A program made the position numbers. DNA of 64,000 bases, taken from Acidobacteriota bacterium. GTDB taxonomy: Bacteria; Acidobacteriota; Vicinamibacteria; Vicinamibacterales; CAVVIG01. Of the stretch, positions 6,001 to 27,000 are shown piece after piece (the first letter of the stretch is position 1; every line of letters begins with the position of its first letter). The stretch spans positions 15,243 through 79,242 of the forward strand of contig JAHFUJ010000001.1 in assembly GCA_023265105.1 (NCBI GenBank), read 5' to 3'.

Positions 6001-9000
6001 CCGACGAGCTGCCGCGCCTGCCCGCGACGATCGTGACCGACGCCGTACCGTGGGCCTACGCGTCGAAATTCGAGTGGCGTCCCGCGGCCCAGCCGCCGCC
6101 GAACGTCCAGGCCTGGATTCGGTGTCGACTTCGCGTAGACGGCGGCGTGATCGGCGTCAGTCTTCTCAGCCCTGATGAGCAGGCCTTCGTCGAGTCACAG
6201 GTCGTGTCATCGGCGGCCAAACCGGTGAATGTCCTGTTGCTGGTGCCGGATCTGATGCAGCGCGGCAGTTTGGTCATCCATACATGGGACACGCCCACGT
6301 CGGCGCGCGTCCGCATCGACGAACTGGCGCTCGTCTGGTAAGACCTGTCGGCTTGATCCCGGAGGAGTCATGACGGACGCGAACAAGAATGACCTGGTGC
6401 TGGTGACCGGTGCCGGAGGATTTATCGGCGGCCACTTGATCGGCGAGCTCCGACGCCTCGGATACCGCCGGCTTCGTGCGGTTGACATCAAGCCTGCCGA
6501 CCAGTGGTACCAGGTCTTTCAGGACGCCGACAATCTCACGCTCGACCTGCGAGACCGCGAGGCATGCCTTCACGCCGCGACGAACGCACGCGAAATCTTC
6601 AACCTGGCGTGCGACATGGGCGGGATGGGATTCATCGAGACGCACAAGGCCGAGTGCATGCTCTCGGTGCTGATCAACACGCAGATGTTGATGGCGGCCC
6701 GCGACGTGAAGGCCGACCGGTTCTTCTATTCCTCGTCCGCGTGCGTGTATGCCGCCGACAAGCAGACCCGCGCGGACATGCCGCCGCTCAAGGAAGCGGA
6801 CGCGTATCCGGCCATGCCGGAGGACGGCTATGGCTGGGAGAAGCTGTTCAGCGAACGGATGTGCCGGCACTTCCGCGAGGACTTCGGCCTCGAGACTCGT
6901 GTGGCCCGCTATCACAACGTGTACGGGCCCCACGGCACGTACGACGGCGGCCGCGAGAAAGCGCCGGCGGCGATTTGCCGGAAGGTGATCGCGGCACAGC
7001 TCGCCGGCGCGAACGAGATCGAGGTGTGGGGCGACGGCGAGCAGACGCGCAGCTTCATGTACATCGACGACTGCCTCCATGGCACGCGCGCCCTCATGGC
7101 CAGCGACATCCGCGAGCCCCTGAATATCGGCAGCGACGAGCTGGTCACGATCAACCAGCTCATCGATATCGTCGAAGGCATTGCCGGGGTGACGCTGAAA
7201 CGCCGCTACAACGTGAGCGCGCCCAAAGGCGTTCGGGGCCGCTGCAGCGACAACACCGAAATCAAGAAGAGGCTCGGCTGGGCGCCGTCGATCAGGTTGC
7301 GTGACGGGATGGAGCAGACGTATCGGTGGATCTACGACCAGATGAAAACGCCGGCCAATCGCCGCCGCGTGTACGCCTGAGGCGCCGCTCGCATGCCTGA
7401 CACGCTCGGCATCGCGCTGGCGCAGCTGAATCCCACCGTCGGCGACGTGGCCGGTAACCTTGCGAAGATCCGGGAGTGTCGGCAGGCGTGCGGATCGGCC
7501 TGCGATCTCCTCGTGTGCAGCGAGCTCGCGCTGATCGGGTACCCGCCCGAAGACCTCGTCCTTCGCCCGGCCGTCATCGAGGCCACGCGACGCGCGATTG
7601 ACGATCTCGCGGCCGACACGGTTTCTGGGCCCGCGGTCCTGGCGACGACGCCGTGGCAGCACGACGGCGCGCTGTACAACGCCGCTGTGCTGCTGGCAGA
7701 CGGTCGAGTTACCGAGGTGCGGCTCAAACACGAGCTCCCCAACTACGGAGTGTTCGACGAGAAGCGCGTGTTTGCCGCCGGACCGCTCCCCGACCCGATC
7801 GATTTTCGCGGTGCGCGCCTCGGCGTCATGATCTGCGAGGACATGTGGTACCCGAAGGTCGCGCGTCATCTGGCGGATCGAGGCGCCGAGCTGCTGATTG
7901 TTCCGAACGGTTCGCCGTTTGAACGCGCGAAACTCAATCAGCGCGTCGGCCTGGCGACCGACCGAGTTCGTGAGACAGGGCTGCCGTTGATGTACGTCAA
8001 CCAGGTCGGCGGTCAGGACGAGCTGGTCTTCGACGGCGGCTCCTTCGTCGTCGGTCGCGACGAACGGTTGGCCGCTCGTTTGCCCGTGTGGAAGGAATGC
8101 ACGCGGATACTGCGCTGGAAGCGCTCCAACAGCGGCTGGAGCTGTGACTCAACGGCGATCGCGCTGGTTCCTTCGGAGCCTCAGAACACCTACCAGGCGC
8201 TGATGCTGGGTCTGCGGGATTACGTCAACAAGAACCGGTTCCCAGGCGTCGTGCTGGGGCTTTCCGGCGGCATCGACTCCGCGCTGACCGCCGCCGTCGC
8301 CGTGGACGCGTTGGGCGCGGATCGGGTCCGGGGCGTTCGACTCCCGTCGCGGTTCACCAGCCAGGACAGTCAGGACGACGCCGAAAGGGAAGCGCGGCGG
8401 TTGGGCATCCAGCTCGACACGATTCCGATCGCCGACGTAGTGGACGCGGTCGAGCGGACGCTGGCGCCGCTGTTTGCGGGCCGCGACCGTGACGTGACCG
8501 AAGAGAACGTTCAGGCCCGCGTTCGCGGGCTGTTGCTGATGGCCGTGTCGAACAAGTTCGGCCCGATGGTTGTGACCACCGGGAACAAGTCGGAGATGTC
8601 GGTCGGCTACGCGACGCTGTACGGCGACATGTGCGGCGGCTACTCGGTGCTGAAGGATCTCTACAAGACCGAGGTGTACGCCCTCGCCGCGTGGCGTAAT
8701 AGTTGTCTGCCAGACGAAGCGCTCGGGCCGGCCGGCGAGGTGATTCCGGCCTCCGTGATGACCAAGGCGCCGACGGCCGAGCTGCGGCCGAATCAGAAAG
8801 ACCAGGACACGCTGCCGGAGTACGCCGACCTCGATGCGATGCTCACCGGCCTGGTGGAGCAGGAGCGCAGCGTCGACGAGATCGCCCGCGAGGGGTATCC
8901 CCGCGACGTCGTGAGCCGAACGCAGAACATGCTGTTGACGGCCGAGTACAAGCGCCGCCAGGCCCCGCCTGGCGTGAAGACGTCCAGCCGCAGCTTCGGT

Positions 9001-24000: not shown

Positions 24001-27000
24001 AAGCGTCGGCCGCGATCGGTGGTATCCAATCACGAACCAGTTCCGAGAGCGTTGATGGCAGCAGGCGTGAGGCCCTCGTCGCTCCACTTTCGTCTGGGTT
24101 CCGGCGATGCGGAGCGTGATCGGATTCACGCGTTCGTCCGGGCACTGTCCGATCGACATATTCACGTGCTCGACTTGCCGTACCGGCTGGCATCGCCGGC
24201 GTACGGCTCGAGCGAAGCCGCCCTCTGGGAAACAGATCAGCGTGAACTCGCAGCGTTTGCGGTGTGGCAGCCCGCGTTCAAGATGCTCGACTACGGGATG
24301 GATCCCCGTCACGGCGTCACCCAGCTGGGTGACGGCTTGATCGATTGGATCGAGTCCTGGTTCGGGCAGCAAGCGCAGGCCCGCGTGGGGCCTCTGACGT
24401 GCTGGCTCAAGGTCGGGGCGGCGAATTGCGATCTCATTCCGCTGCTCGAGAGGCGCGGATTCAGCCGCTGCCCGTGGTCCATCGTGCACCTGGAGCGGCC
24501 CCTTGGCGCCGGCGCCCGTCCGGAGCTGCCTCCAGGGTTTTCGATTCGCTCCAGCTCCCACGTTTCGGCCGAGTCGTGGGCAGAGCTCCATCGAGCGGTC
24601 TTTCCGCGCATCGGTATGAGCGCCGAGTGGCGGCTCGGCATCACGCGATCGCACGGGTACTGCGGCAACCTGGATTTGATCGTGGTGTCTGCTGACGAAC
24701 CGGCGGTAGCGTTCTGCTGCGCGTGGGCAGGCCACCTGCAGAGCGAGCGGGTCGGAGAGATCGAGCCGCTCGGCGCCCACCCCGACTTCCGCGGAAAGCG
24801 CCTGGGCCGGGCCGTTCTCCAGGAAGTCATGCGCCGTATGGCCGCCGAGGGCGTGGCCCGTGTGTTCGTCGAGCCCTGGGACGACAACGTCGGCGCCGTG
24901 CATGCCTATGAGTCGCTGGGCTTCAGGCCGACCTTCAAGATCCCGACGTTCGCGAAACGGTACTCGTGAGAACTGAAGGAGATCTCGAGCGGTTCTTCGA
25001 GCGGCTCGCTGCGAAGTGGCACGAGGTTCCCGCGTCTCGCCTGGAGCGGACGTCGACGCGCGTGCTGGTGTCTGCCACCGACGAGGACGCGTTGGCGGCG
25101 TGGGAGCGTGCCCGCGCCGACACGTCGGACGGCATACGCGGGCTGAGGCTTCGCGGCTGGTTTCACGCCGTGTACGGCCCATGGGCCGCAGGTAAGAAGA
25201 TCTTGGAAGTCGGACCCGGTCTAGGAATCGACGGCGTGGCATTGGCGTGCGCCGGCGCCACGATGACATTCGTTGACGTCAGTTCCACGAATCTCGAACT
25301 GGTCCTACGGGTGTTCTCGCTCAAGGGGCTCGGCCGCCCTGAGTCGCTCCACCTCCAGCGTGTCCGGCAGCTGGATGAACTCGCCACGGACTACGACGCA
25401 GTCATGGCGTTCGGATCGCTCCACCACATCCCGGCTGACACCGGCAGGCCCGAGTTCGAGGCGCTCGCACGGCGCCTCAAGCCAGGTGGCCGATTCATCA
25501 TGCACGCGTATCCGTTCCAGCGCTGGATCGATGAAGGTCAGCTGCCGTTCGACCGTTGGGGCGAGAAAACCGACGGCGCCGGCACGCCGTGGGCAGAGTG
25601 GTATGACGCGGACAAGCTCATCGAGCAACTACGGCCCACGGTGTTCGCGTCCGTGTTGTACTGCGAGTACCGAGACGGTGCCATGAACTGCATCGACTTG
25701 ATCAAGGTCGACGGTGTTCCCGGACTCCAGCAGCCGGCTGCGGGCGCCTCAGCAATTGCCCGAGCGATCGACGTCGCCGCCCTCTCCGTACAGCCAGGGT
25801 GGAGGGCCGTGGCGACGGTTGATGGCAGCGGATCAGTACTCGTGACCACGCCGGAGGAGCCATGGGCGTACGCGGCCACCGTGCCCGTCCATGTGGATCG
25901 AATACCGGCAGATCACACGCGAGGAGTTGTCAGAGTGCGCGCAACGGTGCGTGGTGGCCGTGTCGGTTTCGGGATCCCGGCCGGGAACGGCGCCGCGTTC
26001 GTCACCGAGGAATATCTGGCACGCGACCGTCACGAGCACGAGCAGGAATGCTTTCTGGAATTCGACTTGGCGGCCAACCCTGCGGCGCTCATGATCGTTC
26101 GCAACGCGTCGCCCTCGGCTGGGCGTTCGCAGGTGGTCGTACACTCTCTGGACCTGTTCTCCCTTTAGTACATGCCGCCGTTTCCTCCAGGGCCCCGCGC
26201 CGGATGTCACAGGTCGAAGAGCGGACAGAGCGGGCAAAGGACGATCTCGGGCCGGGCTCCGGGTGGCAGAACGAGGAATCCGCATGTCTAGGCGTGTGTC
26301 GGTGATTGGATTAGGAAAGCTTGGTGCCAGCATGGCGGCCGGAATCGCCAGCCAAGGTCACGACGTCGTCGGCGTGGACATCAATCAAGCCGCCGTTGAC
26401 GCCGTGAACCACGGTCGTGCCCCAGTCCAGGAGACCGGGCTCGACGACCTGATTGCGGCGAATCACCCAAGACTGCGCGCCACGCGAAGCCACGCCGAAG
26501 CCATTCTCAGCTCGGATATCAGCTTCGTCATCGTGCCCACGCCGAGCGACGAGCGCGGCGCGTTCAAGCTGCAGTACGCGGCGTACGCGTTCAGGGAAAT
26601 CGGACGCGCGCTCGCAGGGAAACCTGACTATCACACGGTGGTGTTGACGAGCACCGTGCTCCCGGGTGCGTCGCGATACGGGCTGCTGCCCATACTTGAA
26701 CGGTCGTCCGGAAAGCGGTGCGGCGAAGGGTTCGGTTTCTGCTACAGCCCGGAATTCGTCGCGCTCGGCAACGTCATCCGCGACTTTCTGAGTCCCGACT
26801 TCCTCCTGATCGGGGAGTACGACCGCCGCTCGGGCGACCATCTCGAAGCGCATTACCGCGACATCGTCGACAACGGCGCCAGCGCGGCCCGCATGAGCAT
26901 TGAGAACGCGGAGCTCGCGAAGATCTCCGTCAACGCGTACGTCACCACAAAGATCACGTTCGCGAACATGCTCGCGGAAATCTGCGATCGGATGCCGGGC

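Follow-up and report, generated by a model that had tools for sequence, protein, structure and literature searches.

A displaced nadE tail at the border of a predicted glycan-export cassette in an uncultured acidobacterium

The DNA analysed here, a stretch of 64,000 nucleotides (nt) on contig JAHFUJ010000001.1 of an Acidobacteriota bacterium of the Vicinamibacterales (GenBank assembly GCA_023265105.1; hereafter 'the window'), is a portion of a large glycan-biosynthesis locus of an uncultured acidobacterium that extends over more than 64 kb on one strand. Within it, an intact gene for glutamine-dependent NAD+ synthetase, nadE, is followed by a cassette of twelve genes, which runs from wecB to a gene of the short-chain dehydrogenase/reductase (SDR) family that we call SDR2. 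The cassette in turn is followed by a second copy of only the 3' end of nadE, which overlaps the start of a gene for a GNAT acetyltransferase. This distal copy—the scar—is a functionless and neutrally decaying pseudogene. With a probability of roughly 0.65, we regard the whole arrangement as the product of homology-anchored insertion-duplication in a mosaic, ABC-transporter-dependent glycan locus, brought about either by homology-facilitated illegitimate recombination (HFIR) or by a Campbell-type single crossover.

A decaying copy of the nadE tail behind an AT-richer block

As a preliminary description of this DNA had stated, nadE is intact: its product of 550 amino acids contains both the nitrilase-type glutaminase and the synthase domain and scores 769 bits against the NCBIfam equivalog NF010588 (cut-off 479), and the G+C content at its third codon positions (GC3) is 0.83. 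The same description had placed a second copy of the last ~96 codons, with ~60% amino acid identity, one codon indel and two conserved sequence blocks, at about 23748..24055. This copy is found with the named blocks and a net one-codon insertion, and BLASTP extends it to 101 codons with 68% identity. Local nucleotide alignment of 8742-9045 with 23749-24055 yields 245 identical positions out of 310 (79%), at a score of 280 that is far above that of shuffled sequences (20.8 +/- 2.5). The two tails are direct repeats, 15,007 nt apart, which bracket the insert; their best block (30 of 32 positions) lies at the start, and the homology ends exactly at the TGA of the scar. The pair is the sole significant repeat between 7 and 26 kb, and no short att-like cores or inverted repeats were found at the edges; the preliminary description had named 9046-9140 and 23700-23760 as places to look for such direct repeats.

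Outgroup-polarised, own-lineage changes at codon positions 1, 2 and 3, compared by chi-square, number 16, 16 and 14 in the scar and 0, 0 and 13 in the intact tail. In addition, the scar has lost residues that are invariant in the NadE tails of nine other genomes (TAELRP to IVGLRS, AEYKRRQ to PRYTRRRG, RRYP to RWYP). It is because of this even spread over the codon positions and the loss of invariant residues that the distal copy is recognized as a neutral pseudogene; against Pfam NAD_synthase it reaches 17 bits, which is under the cut-off of 21. At 200 first and second positions there are 29 changes, which correspond to ~0.16 substitutions per site since loss of function. Selection for the open frame of the scar need not be invoked, as the probability of encountering no stop codon under neutral change is 0.17-0.40.

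The 14.7-kb block between the two tails is a compositional unit, the edges of which coincide with the nadE stop and the scar. Its G+C content (GC) is 0.565, as compared with flank values of 0.648 and 0.651. Windows of 500 nt have a GC of 0.564 +/- 0.025 within the block (n=28) and of 0.650 +/- 0.025 beyond it (n=97), a difference with p = 3e-15 by the Mann-Whitney test, and the best two-breakpoint model sets the edges at 9091 and 23755. GC3 ranges from 0.60 to 0.75 in the island and from 0.75 to 0.87 in the flanks, and the tetranucleotide distance between island and flanks (28-35) is about threefold that between the flanks (9.5-12). The lower G+C between the copies that had been noted in the preliminary description is thus borne out. 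Both nadE tails have a GC of 0.667, which is flank-like and equal to that of the nadE gene body, so that neither seems to stem from a low-GC donor. The nadE-wecB spacer (9046..9137), which forms the left compositional edge, has no useful similarity to the spacer at this place in the related contig L166. Promoter or terminator consensus sites were found neither in this spacer nor in the scar, and a role of either as promoter or terminator was dropped for this reason.

A separate observation concerns the GC3 of the cassette genes, which in the window is 0.10-0.17 below that of their 78-88%-identical orthologues in the related contigs L082, L083, L166, L169 and L170 (e.g. 0.64 vs 0.80 for wzm, 0.68 vs 0.85 for SDR1 and 0.67 vs 0.77-0.82 for SDR2), with flank genes being equal. 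The window lineage of the cassette shows an excess of G/C-to-A/T third-position changes.

The cargo list of the preliminary description was recovered, by Pfam for all but the two proteins without family match, with the twelve genes representing wecB, wzm, wzt, a family 2 glycosyltransferase (GT2), three methyltransferases (MTases), a membrane protein, a 701-residue protein, asnB and two SDRs. Judged by these families, the cassette appears to be of the ABC-transporter-dependent glycan type, i.e. O-antigen- or capsule-like, with predicted export of its product.

Cassette borders in related contigs and the ancestry of the two tails

The best NadE matches of the window come from metagenome-assembled genomes of Acidobacteriota and Vicinamibacterales; looking up the exact NadE sequence gave no entry. 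When GTDB species representatives were searched with NadE, 80 loci were returned, in which NadE is at most 77% identical and no common synteny is present; these are too distant for an empty-site search. The relatives referred to below are metagenomic contigs, denoted by L and P numbers.

One of these contigs, L174, is an empty site and shows the ancestral nadE-GNAT arrangement that the preliminary description had postulated. It carries a full nadE with a TGA that overlaps the ATG of GNAT (TGATG), followed by an MTase gene, a different wzm/wzt pair, UGDH and further genes. The same TGATG overlap, between the stop of the fragment and the ATG of GNAT, had been noticed in the window and is indeed there. 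The border reads ...CTCTGC TAG C / scar(304) TGATG GCAGCAGGCGTGAGGCCCTCGTCGCTCCAC TTTCGT in the window and ...GAGAGC TGATG TCTGCCGCGCCCGAGACATCGACGATCCAC TTTCGT in L174, and the first 12 codons of GNAT are collinear between L174 and the window (MSAAPETSTIHFRV vs MAAGVRPSSLHFRL). Because L174 has the same TGATG and a collinear GNAT N-terminus, we read the scar, the TGATG and the first GNAT codons as the inherited native nadE-GNAT junction. At the other end of the scar, TAG and a C of SDR2 occupy 23745-23748 and homology to the nadE tail begins at the next base; this joint reads TAG C/GATTCC, and at most 1-2 nt could be common to both parents. What follows the scar might be taken for the last codons of SDR2 in remnant form; this was rejected, since the sequence is more readily understood as GNAT's own 5' codons, collinear with L174, onto which L083 and L084 fuse SDR2.

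The contigs with the closest GNAT genes (L082, 85%; the P0003 contig, 81%; L083, 69%; L084/L085, 65%) have orthologues of SDR1 and SDR2 (80-88% amino acid identity) directly 5' of GNAT, with no nadE piece between; for SDR2 this holds for L082, L083, L084 and L085 alike. In scar-free relatives with SDR2 upstream, GNAT starts with a TTG seven codons further in, and its 5' end has lost 7 nt in L083/L084 and ~33 nt in L082, with the borders reading ...CTCTGC CAGGTCTGATCCGTCGTTGCTTCAC TTTCGC in L083 and ...CTTTGT TGAG TTTCGCC in L082. Individual details differ between these contigs. In L083 (1460-1500) and L084 (1010-1050), SDR2 is two codons longer and reads into the former 5' codons of GNAT; L082 (SRR29604914; 655-690) has a TTGA overlap of SDR2 and GNAT after its loss; and the P0003 contig (JGI 3300043313) has an 85-nt spacer between the two genes. 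The scar-free relatives reflect either separate deletions of an older scar or separate capture events.

The left border recurs in L166, L167 and L168, which represent one organism and two of which share samples with L084/L085. These contigs have the order SDR-nadE-wecB-wzm-wzt at 76-85% identity to the window, and their GC falls from 0.63-0.67 to 0.54-0.60 within the cassette. Adjacency of nadE to the SDR gene on its left is conserved in L086, L088, L089, L100, L107 and L166. L086, which has the closest NadE (90%; OBEQ010798468.1), as well as L087 and L091 keep SDR-nadE and then continue with different wzm/wzt cassettes. The right side, i.e. GNAT-MTase-UGDH and genes beyond, is conserved as well. 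Orthologues of the first and last cassette genes (78-88% amino acid identity) are present at the same borders in relatives (nadE/wecB and SDR2/GNAT), their divergence is about as in the flanks, and the cassette is AT-richer than its flanks there too. From these comparisons, nadE emerges as a conserved gene at the left edge of a glycan locus that is mosaic and has a variable centre richer in AT, and the cassette itself is lineage-resident and swappable, without the character of an alien island. The earlier proposal that a foreign block had entered nadE therefore stands in one part—L174 and the scar attest to insertion of a block with duplication of the tail—but not in the other, as the block has orthologues at the same borders, AT-richer there as well. 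A larger duplication, with SDR-nadE on one side and SDR-scar on the other, is ruled out, as the SDR at 6370..7380 and the last SDR of the cassette are only 25% identical.

Two contigs with nadE show further features of their own. L086 has an extra paralogue (1083-2351, 62%) of the window gene at 4890-6341 and, between SDR and nadE, an MTase-domain open reading frame (ORF; 3242-4198) without counterpart in the window. In L175 (ENA ERZ25039490, contig_39245; 8702-10608), nadE is present as three ORFs, which are likely due to long-read indel errors, and UGDH follows ~110 nt on, with no cassette and no GNAT gene.

The wecB-led module is not tied to nadE. It stands behind nadE in the window and in L166; in L169 the preceding gene encodes a hexapeptide transferase and in L170 a GNAT, the wecB genes of these two contigs being close to that of the window (81-85% identity). 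In L170 (JGI 3300041025, Ga0435228_037138; 1-2273), wecB (670-1749) and a wzm of which only the first 37 codons are present (1746-1856) come after a GNAT-domain gene (8-673). Behind them, at 1842-2023, lies a second copy of the tail of that GNAT gene, which is 181 nt long (87% identity) and has an ATGA overlap with a MaoC-like gene. By this layout, L170 seems to represent a second, independent insertion-duplication that involves the tail of another gene. The N-terminal half of its GNAT-domain gene appears to be unrelated to GNATs, and a gene fusion or an assembly chimera is possible. When all 176 sequences were compared with themselves by BLAST to find short direct repeats of this type, most matches were between paralogues, and among relatives only L170 was scar-like. 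A search for further scars with the 101-residue fragment returned only the window's own ORF and genuine NadE ends at contig edges; a match of 96 residues in P0249 was rejected as a scar, since it belongs to a nadE broken by frameshift in an assembly prone to errors. The same modules occur in many orders among relatives: wecB in L169 lies directly after a homologue of the window gene at 1782-2390, and in L171-L173 (ENA ERZ1079234-6), a locus without nadE, a GNAT orthologue (52%) stands between homologues of 726-1706 and 1782-2390.

An important question is whether the scar derives from the nadE gene that now stands in front of the cassette. With L086 as comparator and six outgroups, 10 derived sites, 9 of which are third positions, unite the scar with L086, and 0 unite it with the resident tail, where ~0.9 would be expected by parallel change. 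In neighbour-joining bootstraps (n=300), it falls inside the clade of the resident tail and L086 in 300/300 replicates and is sister to L086 in 185/300 and to the resident tail alone in 0/300. On account of the 10:0 split of derived sites and this placement, the two tails differ in ancestry and the scar is not a copy of the present resident nadE. The intact gene itself showed no sign of chimerism at 8742 when compared with L086: their divergence is even along the whole gene (at third positions, 29.8% 5' of codon 450 and 24% 3' of it), L086-derived states make up 63% 5' and 58% 3' of 8742 (Fisher p = 0.68), and the 2 kb upstream of nadE show a like divergence from L086 (0.23-0.29). One tail stems from a second, closely related, high-GC lineage, where donor and recipient are not told apart by the data. 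The preliminary description had spoken of a substitute 3' end brought in by the block. Origin of one tail in another lineage agrees with the grouping of the scar with L086, but the working 3' end is not shown to be the import, given a GC of 0.667 in both tails and the lack of a discontinuity at 8742.

Evolutionary history, too, changes across the scar, as indicated by polarised third-position changes: window and L082 have 20:8 of them in SDR2, as against 17:44 in GNAT+MTase (Fisher p = 1.7e-4). Total divergence between the window and L082 is alike on either side (0.29 vs 0.23-0.27), and the GNAT and SDR2 trees are congruent, with the window and L082 being sisters in both.

Possible routes of cassette capture

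On the reading that we favour, the starting genome would have had nadE abutting GNAT by the TGATG overlap, and a wecB...SDR2 cassette would have arrived from a closely related genome that already had nadE in front of wecB. Pairing would have been via homology in the nadE region, with the far end of the incoming DNA, just past the SDR2 stop, being joined without homology to codon 450 of a nadE tail. This would yield a complete nadE, then the cassette, and behind it a nadE tail of 304 nt, displaced but with GNAT still joined to it. Two routes could lead there. In HFIR of a long linear fragment, one arm would be homologous within nadE or to its left and the opposite end would be joined inside the resident nadE, so that the scar would be the recipient's tail; in a Campbell-type single crossover with a circular or terminally redundant fragment that carries a nadE tail, it would be the donor's. 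In either case host recombination functions alone should suffice, and the scar would then drift without NadE function. On the analogy of the cps/galE2 case of the meningococcus we lean slightly towards HFIR over the Campbell type, while the data do not separate the two routes.

Several points weigh against insertion-duplication in this form. No donor genome could be pointed to, and the relatives are short metagenomic contigs, 0 of which cover both borders of the cassette. The junction of SDR2 and the nadE tail is a clean break, at which microhomology could amount to 1-2 nt at most. In L082, L083, L084/L085 and the P0003 contig, SDR2 comes immediately before GNAT and the scar is absent. Should L166 and L084 belong to one organism, the nadE tail of that organism would lie outside the scar's clade, which poorly fits one ancient event followed by purely vertical descent. 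Finally, the lowered GC3 of the cassette is not explained by the model and could reflect a lower-GC donor or relaxed selection.

Among the rival explanations, site-specific integration was the one suggested by the preliminary description, which saw the classical footprint of integration into the 3' end of a housekeeping gene but left the mechanism open. Here, an integrative island would have carried a substitute nadE 3' end at its attP, with the integrase later deleted or acting in trans (as for a cis-mobilisable element). The layout is formally that of the insertion of a phage or an integrative and conjugative element (ICE), i.e. intact gene, element and displaced 3' fragment, and an empty site exists in L174, yet the likeness does not go beyond the formal. 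The 64-kb window contains no tRNA gene, and no integrase, excisionase or transposase families were found with Pfam among its scanned gene-sized ORFs, with 49448-51202, 51094-52788, 60523-61590, 61606-63447 and the wzt start region being not separately scanned or without match; in this the preliminary description is upheld. All 12 cargo genes are glycan genes or unknowns without recombinase signature, and there is no short conserved core besides the 304-nt diverged duplication. Both tails have host-like GC and the intact nadE is not chimeric at 8742. Target specificity is lacking as well, since the wecB-led module follows three different genes and L170 duplicates the tail of another gene. Because recombinase, att core, target specificity and a chimeric nadE are all missing, we consider site-specific integration very unlikely, and recombination by host functions, for which there is a published precedent (PMC5349592), is the better reading.

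The duplication might also have arisen in situ without transfer, either as a tandem [nadE tail...SDR2] with subsequent loss of the second cassette or as a copy of the resident tail made at cassette arrival, with nadE and its left flank later replaced by another allele. The similar numbers of third-position changes on the two tail lineages with a distant outgroup (13 vs 14) look as if the tails had once been identical, GC is the same in both, and recombination in the flanks of glycan loci is common in general. With the closer outgroup L086, however, 10 derived sites link the scar to L086 and 0 link it to the resident tail. Moreover, the resident gene would have to have been replaced later across at least 3.7 kb without trace, the tandem route requires a second illegitimate deletion that ends at the first junction, and the discordant window:L082 branch lengths across the scar are left unaccounted for, which makes this origin improbable. 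The opposite direction of import, in which a genome that already bore the cassette gained [nadE tail-GNAT...] from an empty-site relative, anchored in GNAT/MTase and joined illegitimately at the SDR2 stop, would leave the scar alone as the net insertion. It requires only a few kb of donor DNA and accounts for the full GNAT 5' end and TGATG in the window vs the 5'-truncated GNAT in L082-L084, for the affinity of the scar to another lineage and for the change of history at the scar. Yet no drop in window-L082 divergence just right of the scar marks donor DNA, the GNAT and SDR2 trees are congruent, and a block that ends exactly at the scar is not explained unless this edge pre-existed, so that we regard import from the right as unlikely too. 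Least credible of all is that the scar is a late filler, i.e. a 304-nt nadE piece inserted into an SDR2-GNAT junction, or an artefact of assembly. Relatives do have SDR2 abutting GNAT without such a piece, but in the window the piece brings the exact native junction—TGATG plus the first two GNAT codons, which are absent in L083 and L084—and is collinear with L174, which is not to be expected of a random filler. An ENA assembly that is independent (L001) has the identical arrangement, three contigs from as many sources (NCBI, Logan and ENA) carry an identical scar ORF, which is therefore no assembly artefact, and the arrangement is seen in two strain variants; besides, repeats that have diverged by 21% cause no assembly collapse.

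A more far-reaching idea, which goes beyond the insertion-duplication favoured here and which we find unlikely, is that wecB-led modules in soil Acidobacteria habitually move as recombinase-free, homology-bracketed cassettes. In this case the piece of the upstream gene would serve as a portable homology arm, integration would be by RecA only, and pop-out would restore nadE-GNAT for as long as the repeats are similar. If true, this would constitute a population-level on/off and swap mechanism for surface glycans, of which the window and L170 would be two fossils.

Gene content and known counterparts

The positions of nadE, the cassette, the scar and their neighbours are collected in table 1.

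Table 1. Features in and around the cassette, in window coordinates.
Feature	Position	Strand	Basis
SDR epimerase/dehydratase gene, conserved left neighbour of nadE	6370..7380	+	Pfam Epimerase + GDP_Man_Dehyd
nadE, intact glutamine-dependent NAD+ synthetase, 550 amino acids (aa), left anchor of cassette	7393..9045	+	Pfam CN_hydrolase (PF00795) + NAD_synthase (PF02540)
Proximal copy of duplicated nadE tail (last 101 codons + stop of working gene)	8742..9045	+	nucleotide alignment
nadE-wecB spacer, left compositional edge	9046..9137	+	GC 0.62; best breakpoint 9091
wecB, non-hydrolysing UDP-GlcNAc 2-epimerase, first cassette gene	9138..10205	+	Pfam Epimerase_2; TIGR00236 335 bits (cut-off 210)
wzm, ABC-2 permease	10228..11031	+	Pfam ABC2_membrane (PF01061); seven hydrophobic segments; 82% aa identity to L166, L169
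wzt, ABC ATPase with C-terminal glycan-binding domain	11024..12877	+	Pfam ABC_tran (PF00005) + Wzt_C (PF14524)
GT2 polyprenyl-phosphate glycosyltransferase-like gene	12942..13829	+	Pfam Glycos_transf_2
Two S-adenosylmethionine (SAM) MTase genes	13839-14579, 14576-15427	+	Pfam Methyltransf_11, Methyltransf_25
Polytopic membrane protein, 446 aa	15484..16824	+	at least 7 hydrophobic segments; start as in L001 gene call
Third SAM MTase gene	16832..17680	+	Pfam Methyltransf_11; 79% aa identity to L169
Soluble protein, 701 aa	17677..19782	+	45% aa identity to part of giant ORF in L166 cassette
asnB-type glutamine amidotransferase gene	19819..21753	+	Pfam GATase_7 + Asn_synthase
SDR1, NAD-dependent epimerase/dehydratase	21757..22704	+	Pfam Epimerase; 80% aa identity to L083
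SDR2, last cassette gene, complete, ending ...MRLC-TAG	22701..23747	+	Pfam Epimerase
Proposed illegitimate junction, SDR2 stop+C to nadE codon 450	23748..23749	+	...CTCTGC TAG C/GATTCCGG...
Scar, displaced nadE tail pseudogene, codons 450-550 + stop, 304 nt	23749..24055	+	79% nt identity to 8742-9045
TGATG stop/start overlap, probable inherited native nadE-GNAT junction	24053..24057	+	same overlap in L174
GNAT acetyltransferase gene, first of conserved right flank, ATG at 24055	24055..24969	+	Pfam Acetyltransf_1; orthologues 55-85% aa identity

Orthologues of wecB in relatives are 78-88% identical at the amino acid level, and wzt is 79-85% identical to its counterparts in L166 and L168; its start at ATG 11024 was chosen by analogy to an 8-nt overlap in L166. 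The product of the GT2 gene has weak NCBIfam matches to dolichyl- and undecaprenyl-phosphate sugar transferases, all far under the cut-offs. No match in Pfam, NCBIfam or PDB was obtained for the polytopic membrane protein or for the 701-residue protein, the latter of which belongs to no known recombinase family. The asnB gene of the cassette is only 33% identical to its paralogue in the flank (40580-42580).

Further along the window, two sets of tandem paralogues are found. The pair at 32966-34981 and 34837-37050 shows 47% identity, is without Pfam match and is kept in L084 (62%); those at 47955-49613, 49448-51202 and 51094-52788 have 67-76% mutual identity, and this trio, the first gene of which is without Pfam match, looks like a recent local gene amplification. 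The otherwise tightly packed locus has unusually long gaps at 39916-40579 (665 nt), 55396-56005 (611 nt) and 60204-60522 (319 nt).

How, then, does the window compare with systems already known? Loci for O-antigen or capsule synthesis have conserved flanking genes and an AT-richer, exchangeable centre, with the exchange of K loci in Klebsiella as one example. The window is similar in its conserved flanks (SDR-nadE on the left, GNAT/MTase/UGDH on the right) and its variable wzm/wzt centre with a GC below that of the genome and mosaic content; it differs in that it belongs to Acidobacteriota known only from metagenomes, has an NAD synthetase gene as a flank and is part of an unusually large locus (>64 kb on one strand). 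Phages or ICEs that integrate into the 3' end of protein-coding genes and provide a substitute end are exemplified by e14 and phage 21 in icd of E. coli. Intact gene, inserted DNA and a displaced, differing 3' fragment are common to these and the window, but the e14/phage 21 type has an integrase, a defined core and a foreign substitute end, none of which is seen here.

HFIR has been described in Acinetobacter, Pseudomonas stutzeri, S. pneumoniae and E. coli (PMC3240628; references in PMC5361080) and has been invoked for arrays of effector-immunity genes of type VI secretion systems and for the displacement of Rhs/CdiA C-termini that leaves orphan 3' ends (PMC3240628, PMC5361080). Such loci share with the window one homologous anchor and one illegitimate joint, an older 3' end orphaned downstream and the lack of an element-encoded recombinase. 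In the toxin loci, however, the displaced 3' ends are useful, as immunity genes or as a toxin reservoir, and are found in arrays, whereas the window has a single useless tail of an essential-type metabolic gene; and microhomology, which is typical of HFIR joints, could amount to 1-2 nt at most in the window.

The closest published precedent is the cps island of N. meningitidis, which has an intact galE1 in Region D and a truncated remnant, galE2, in Region D' that groups with galE of capsule-null strains (PMC5349592). According to the model proposed there, the island was captured en bloc when it recombined illegitimately into the galE that was resident in a capsule-null locus (PMC5349592). In both cases, an ABC-transporter-dependent glycan island lies between an intact gene and its 3' remnant, there is no recombinase, the remnant groups apart from the resident intact copy, and relatives have an island-free junction. 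The repeats of the meningococcal locus are inverted, comprise 615 nt plus the rfb genes and are similar enough to recombine and invert the locus; those of the window are direct, 304 nt long and 21% diverged, with the remnant decaying, the gene is nadE rather than a gene for a sugar epimerase, and the host is an uncultured soil acidobacterium.

Overall, a scar of this kind is already known from capsule loci, and the window is a new example in an uncultured acidobacterial lineage. What looks like a genomic island—an AT-richer block with a duplicated gene end and no integrase—would thus be a scar left by recombination where a swappable glycan cassette ends, and for genome scans this means that a 3'-end duplication together with a GC step is by itself no sign of a mobile element. 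As a natural example the scar is also dated, by ~0.16 neutral substitutions per site since the event, and empty site, scar and scar-free derivatives are all visible in metagenomes. A poorly known phylum thereby shows the locus architecture of enterobacterial O-antigen and meningococcal capsule loci and, on the reading favoured here, the same mode of capture, by recombination that is either illegitimate or homologous on one side only and after which a truncated copy of a gene stays behind.

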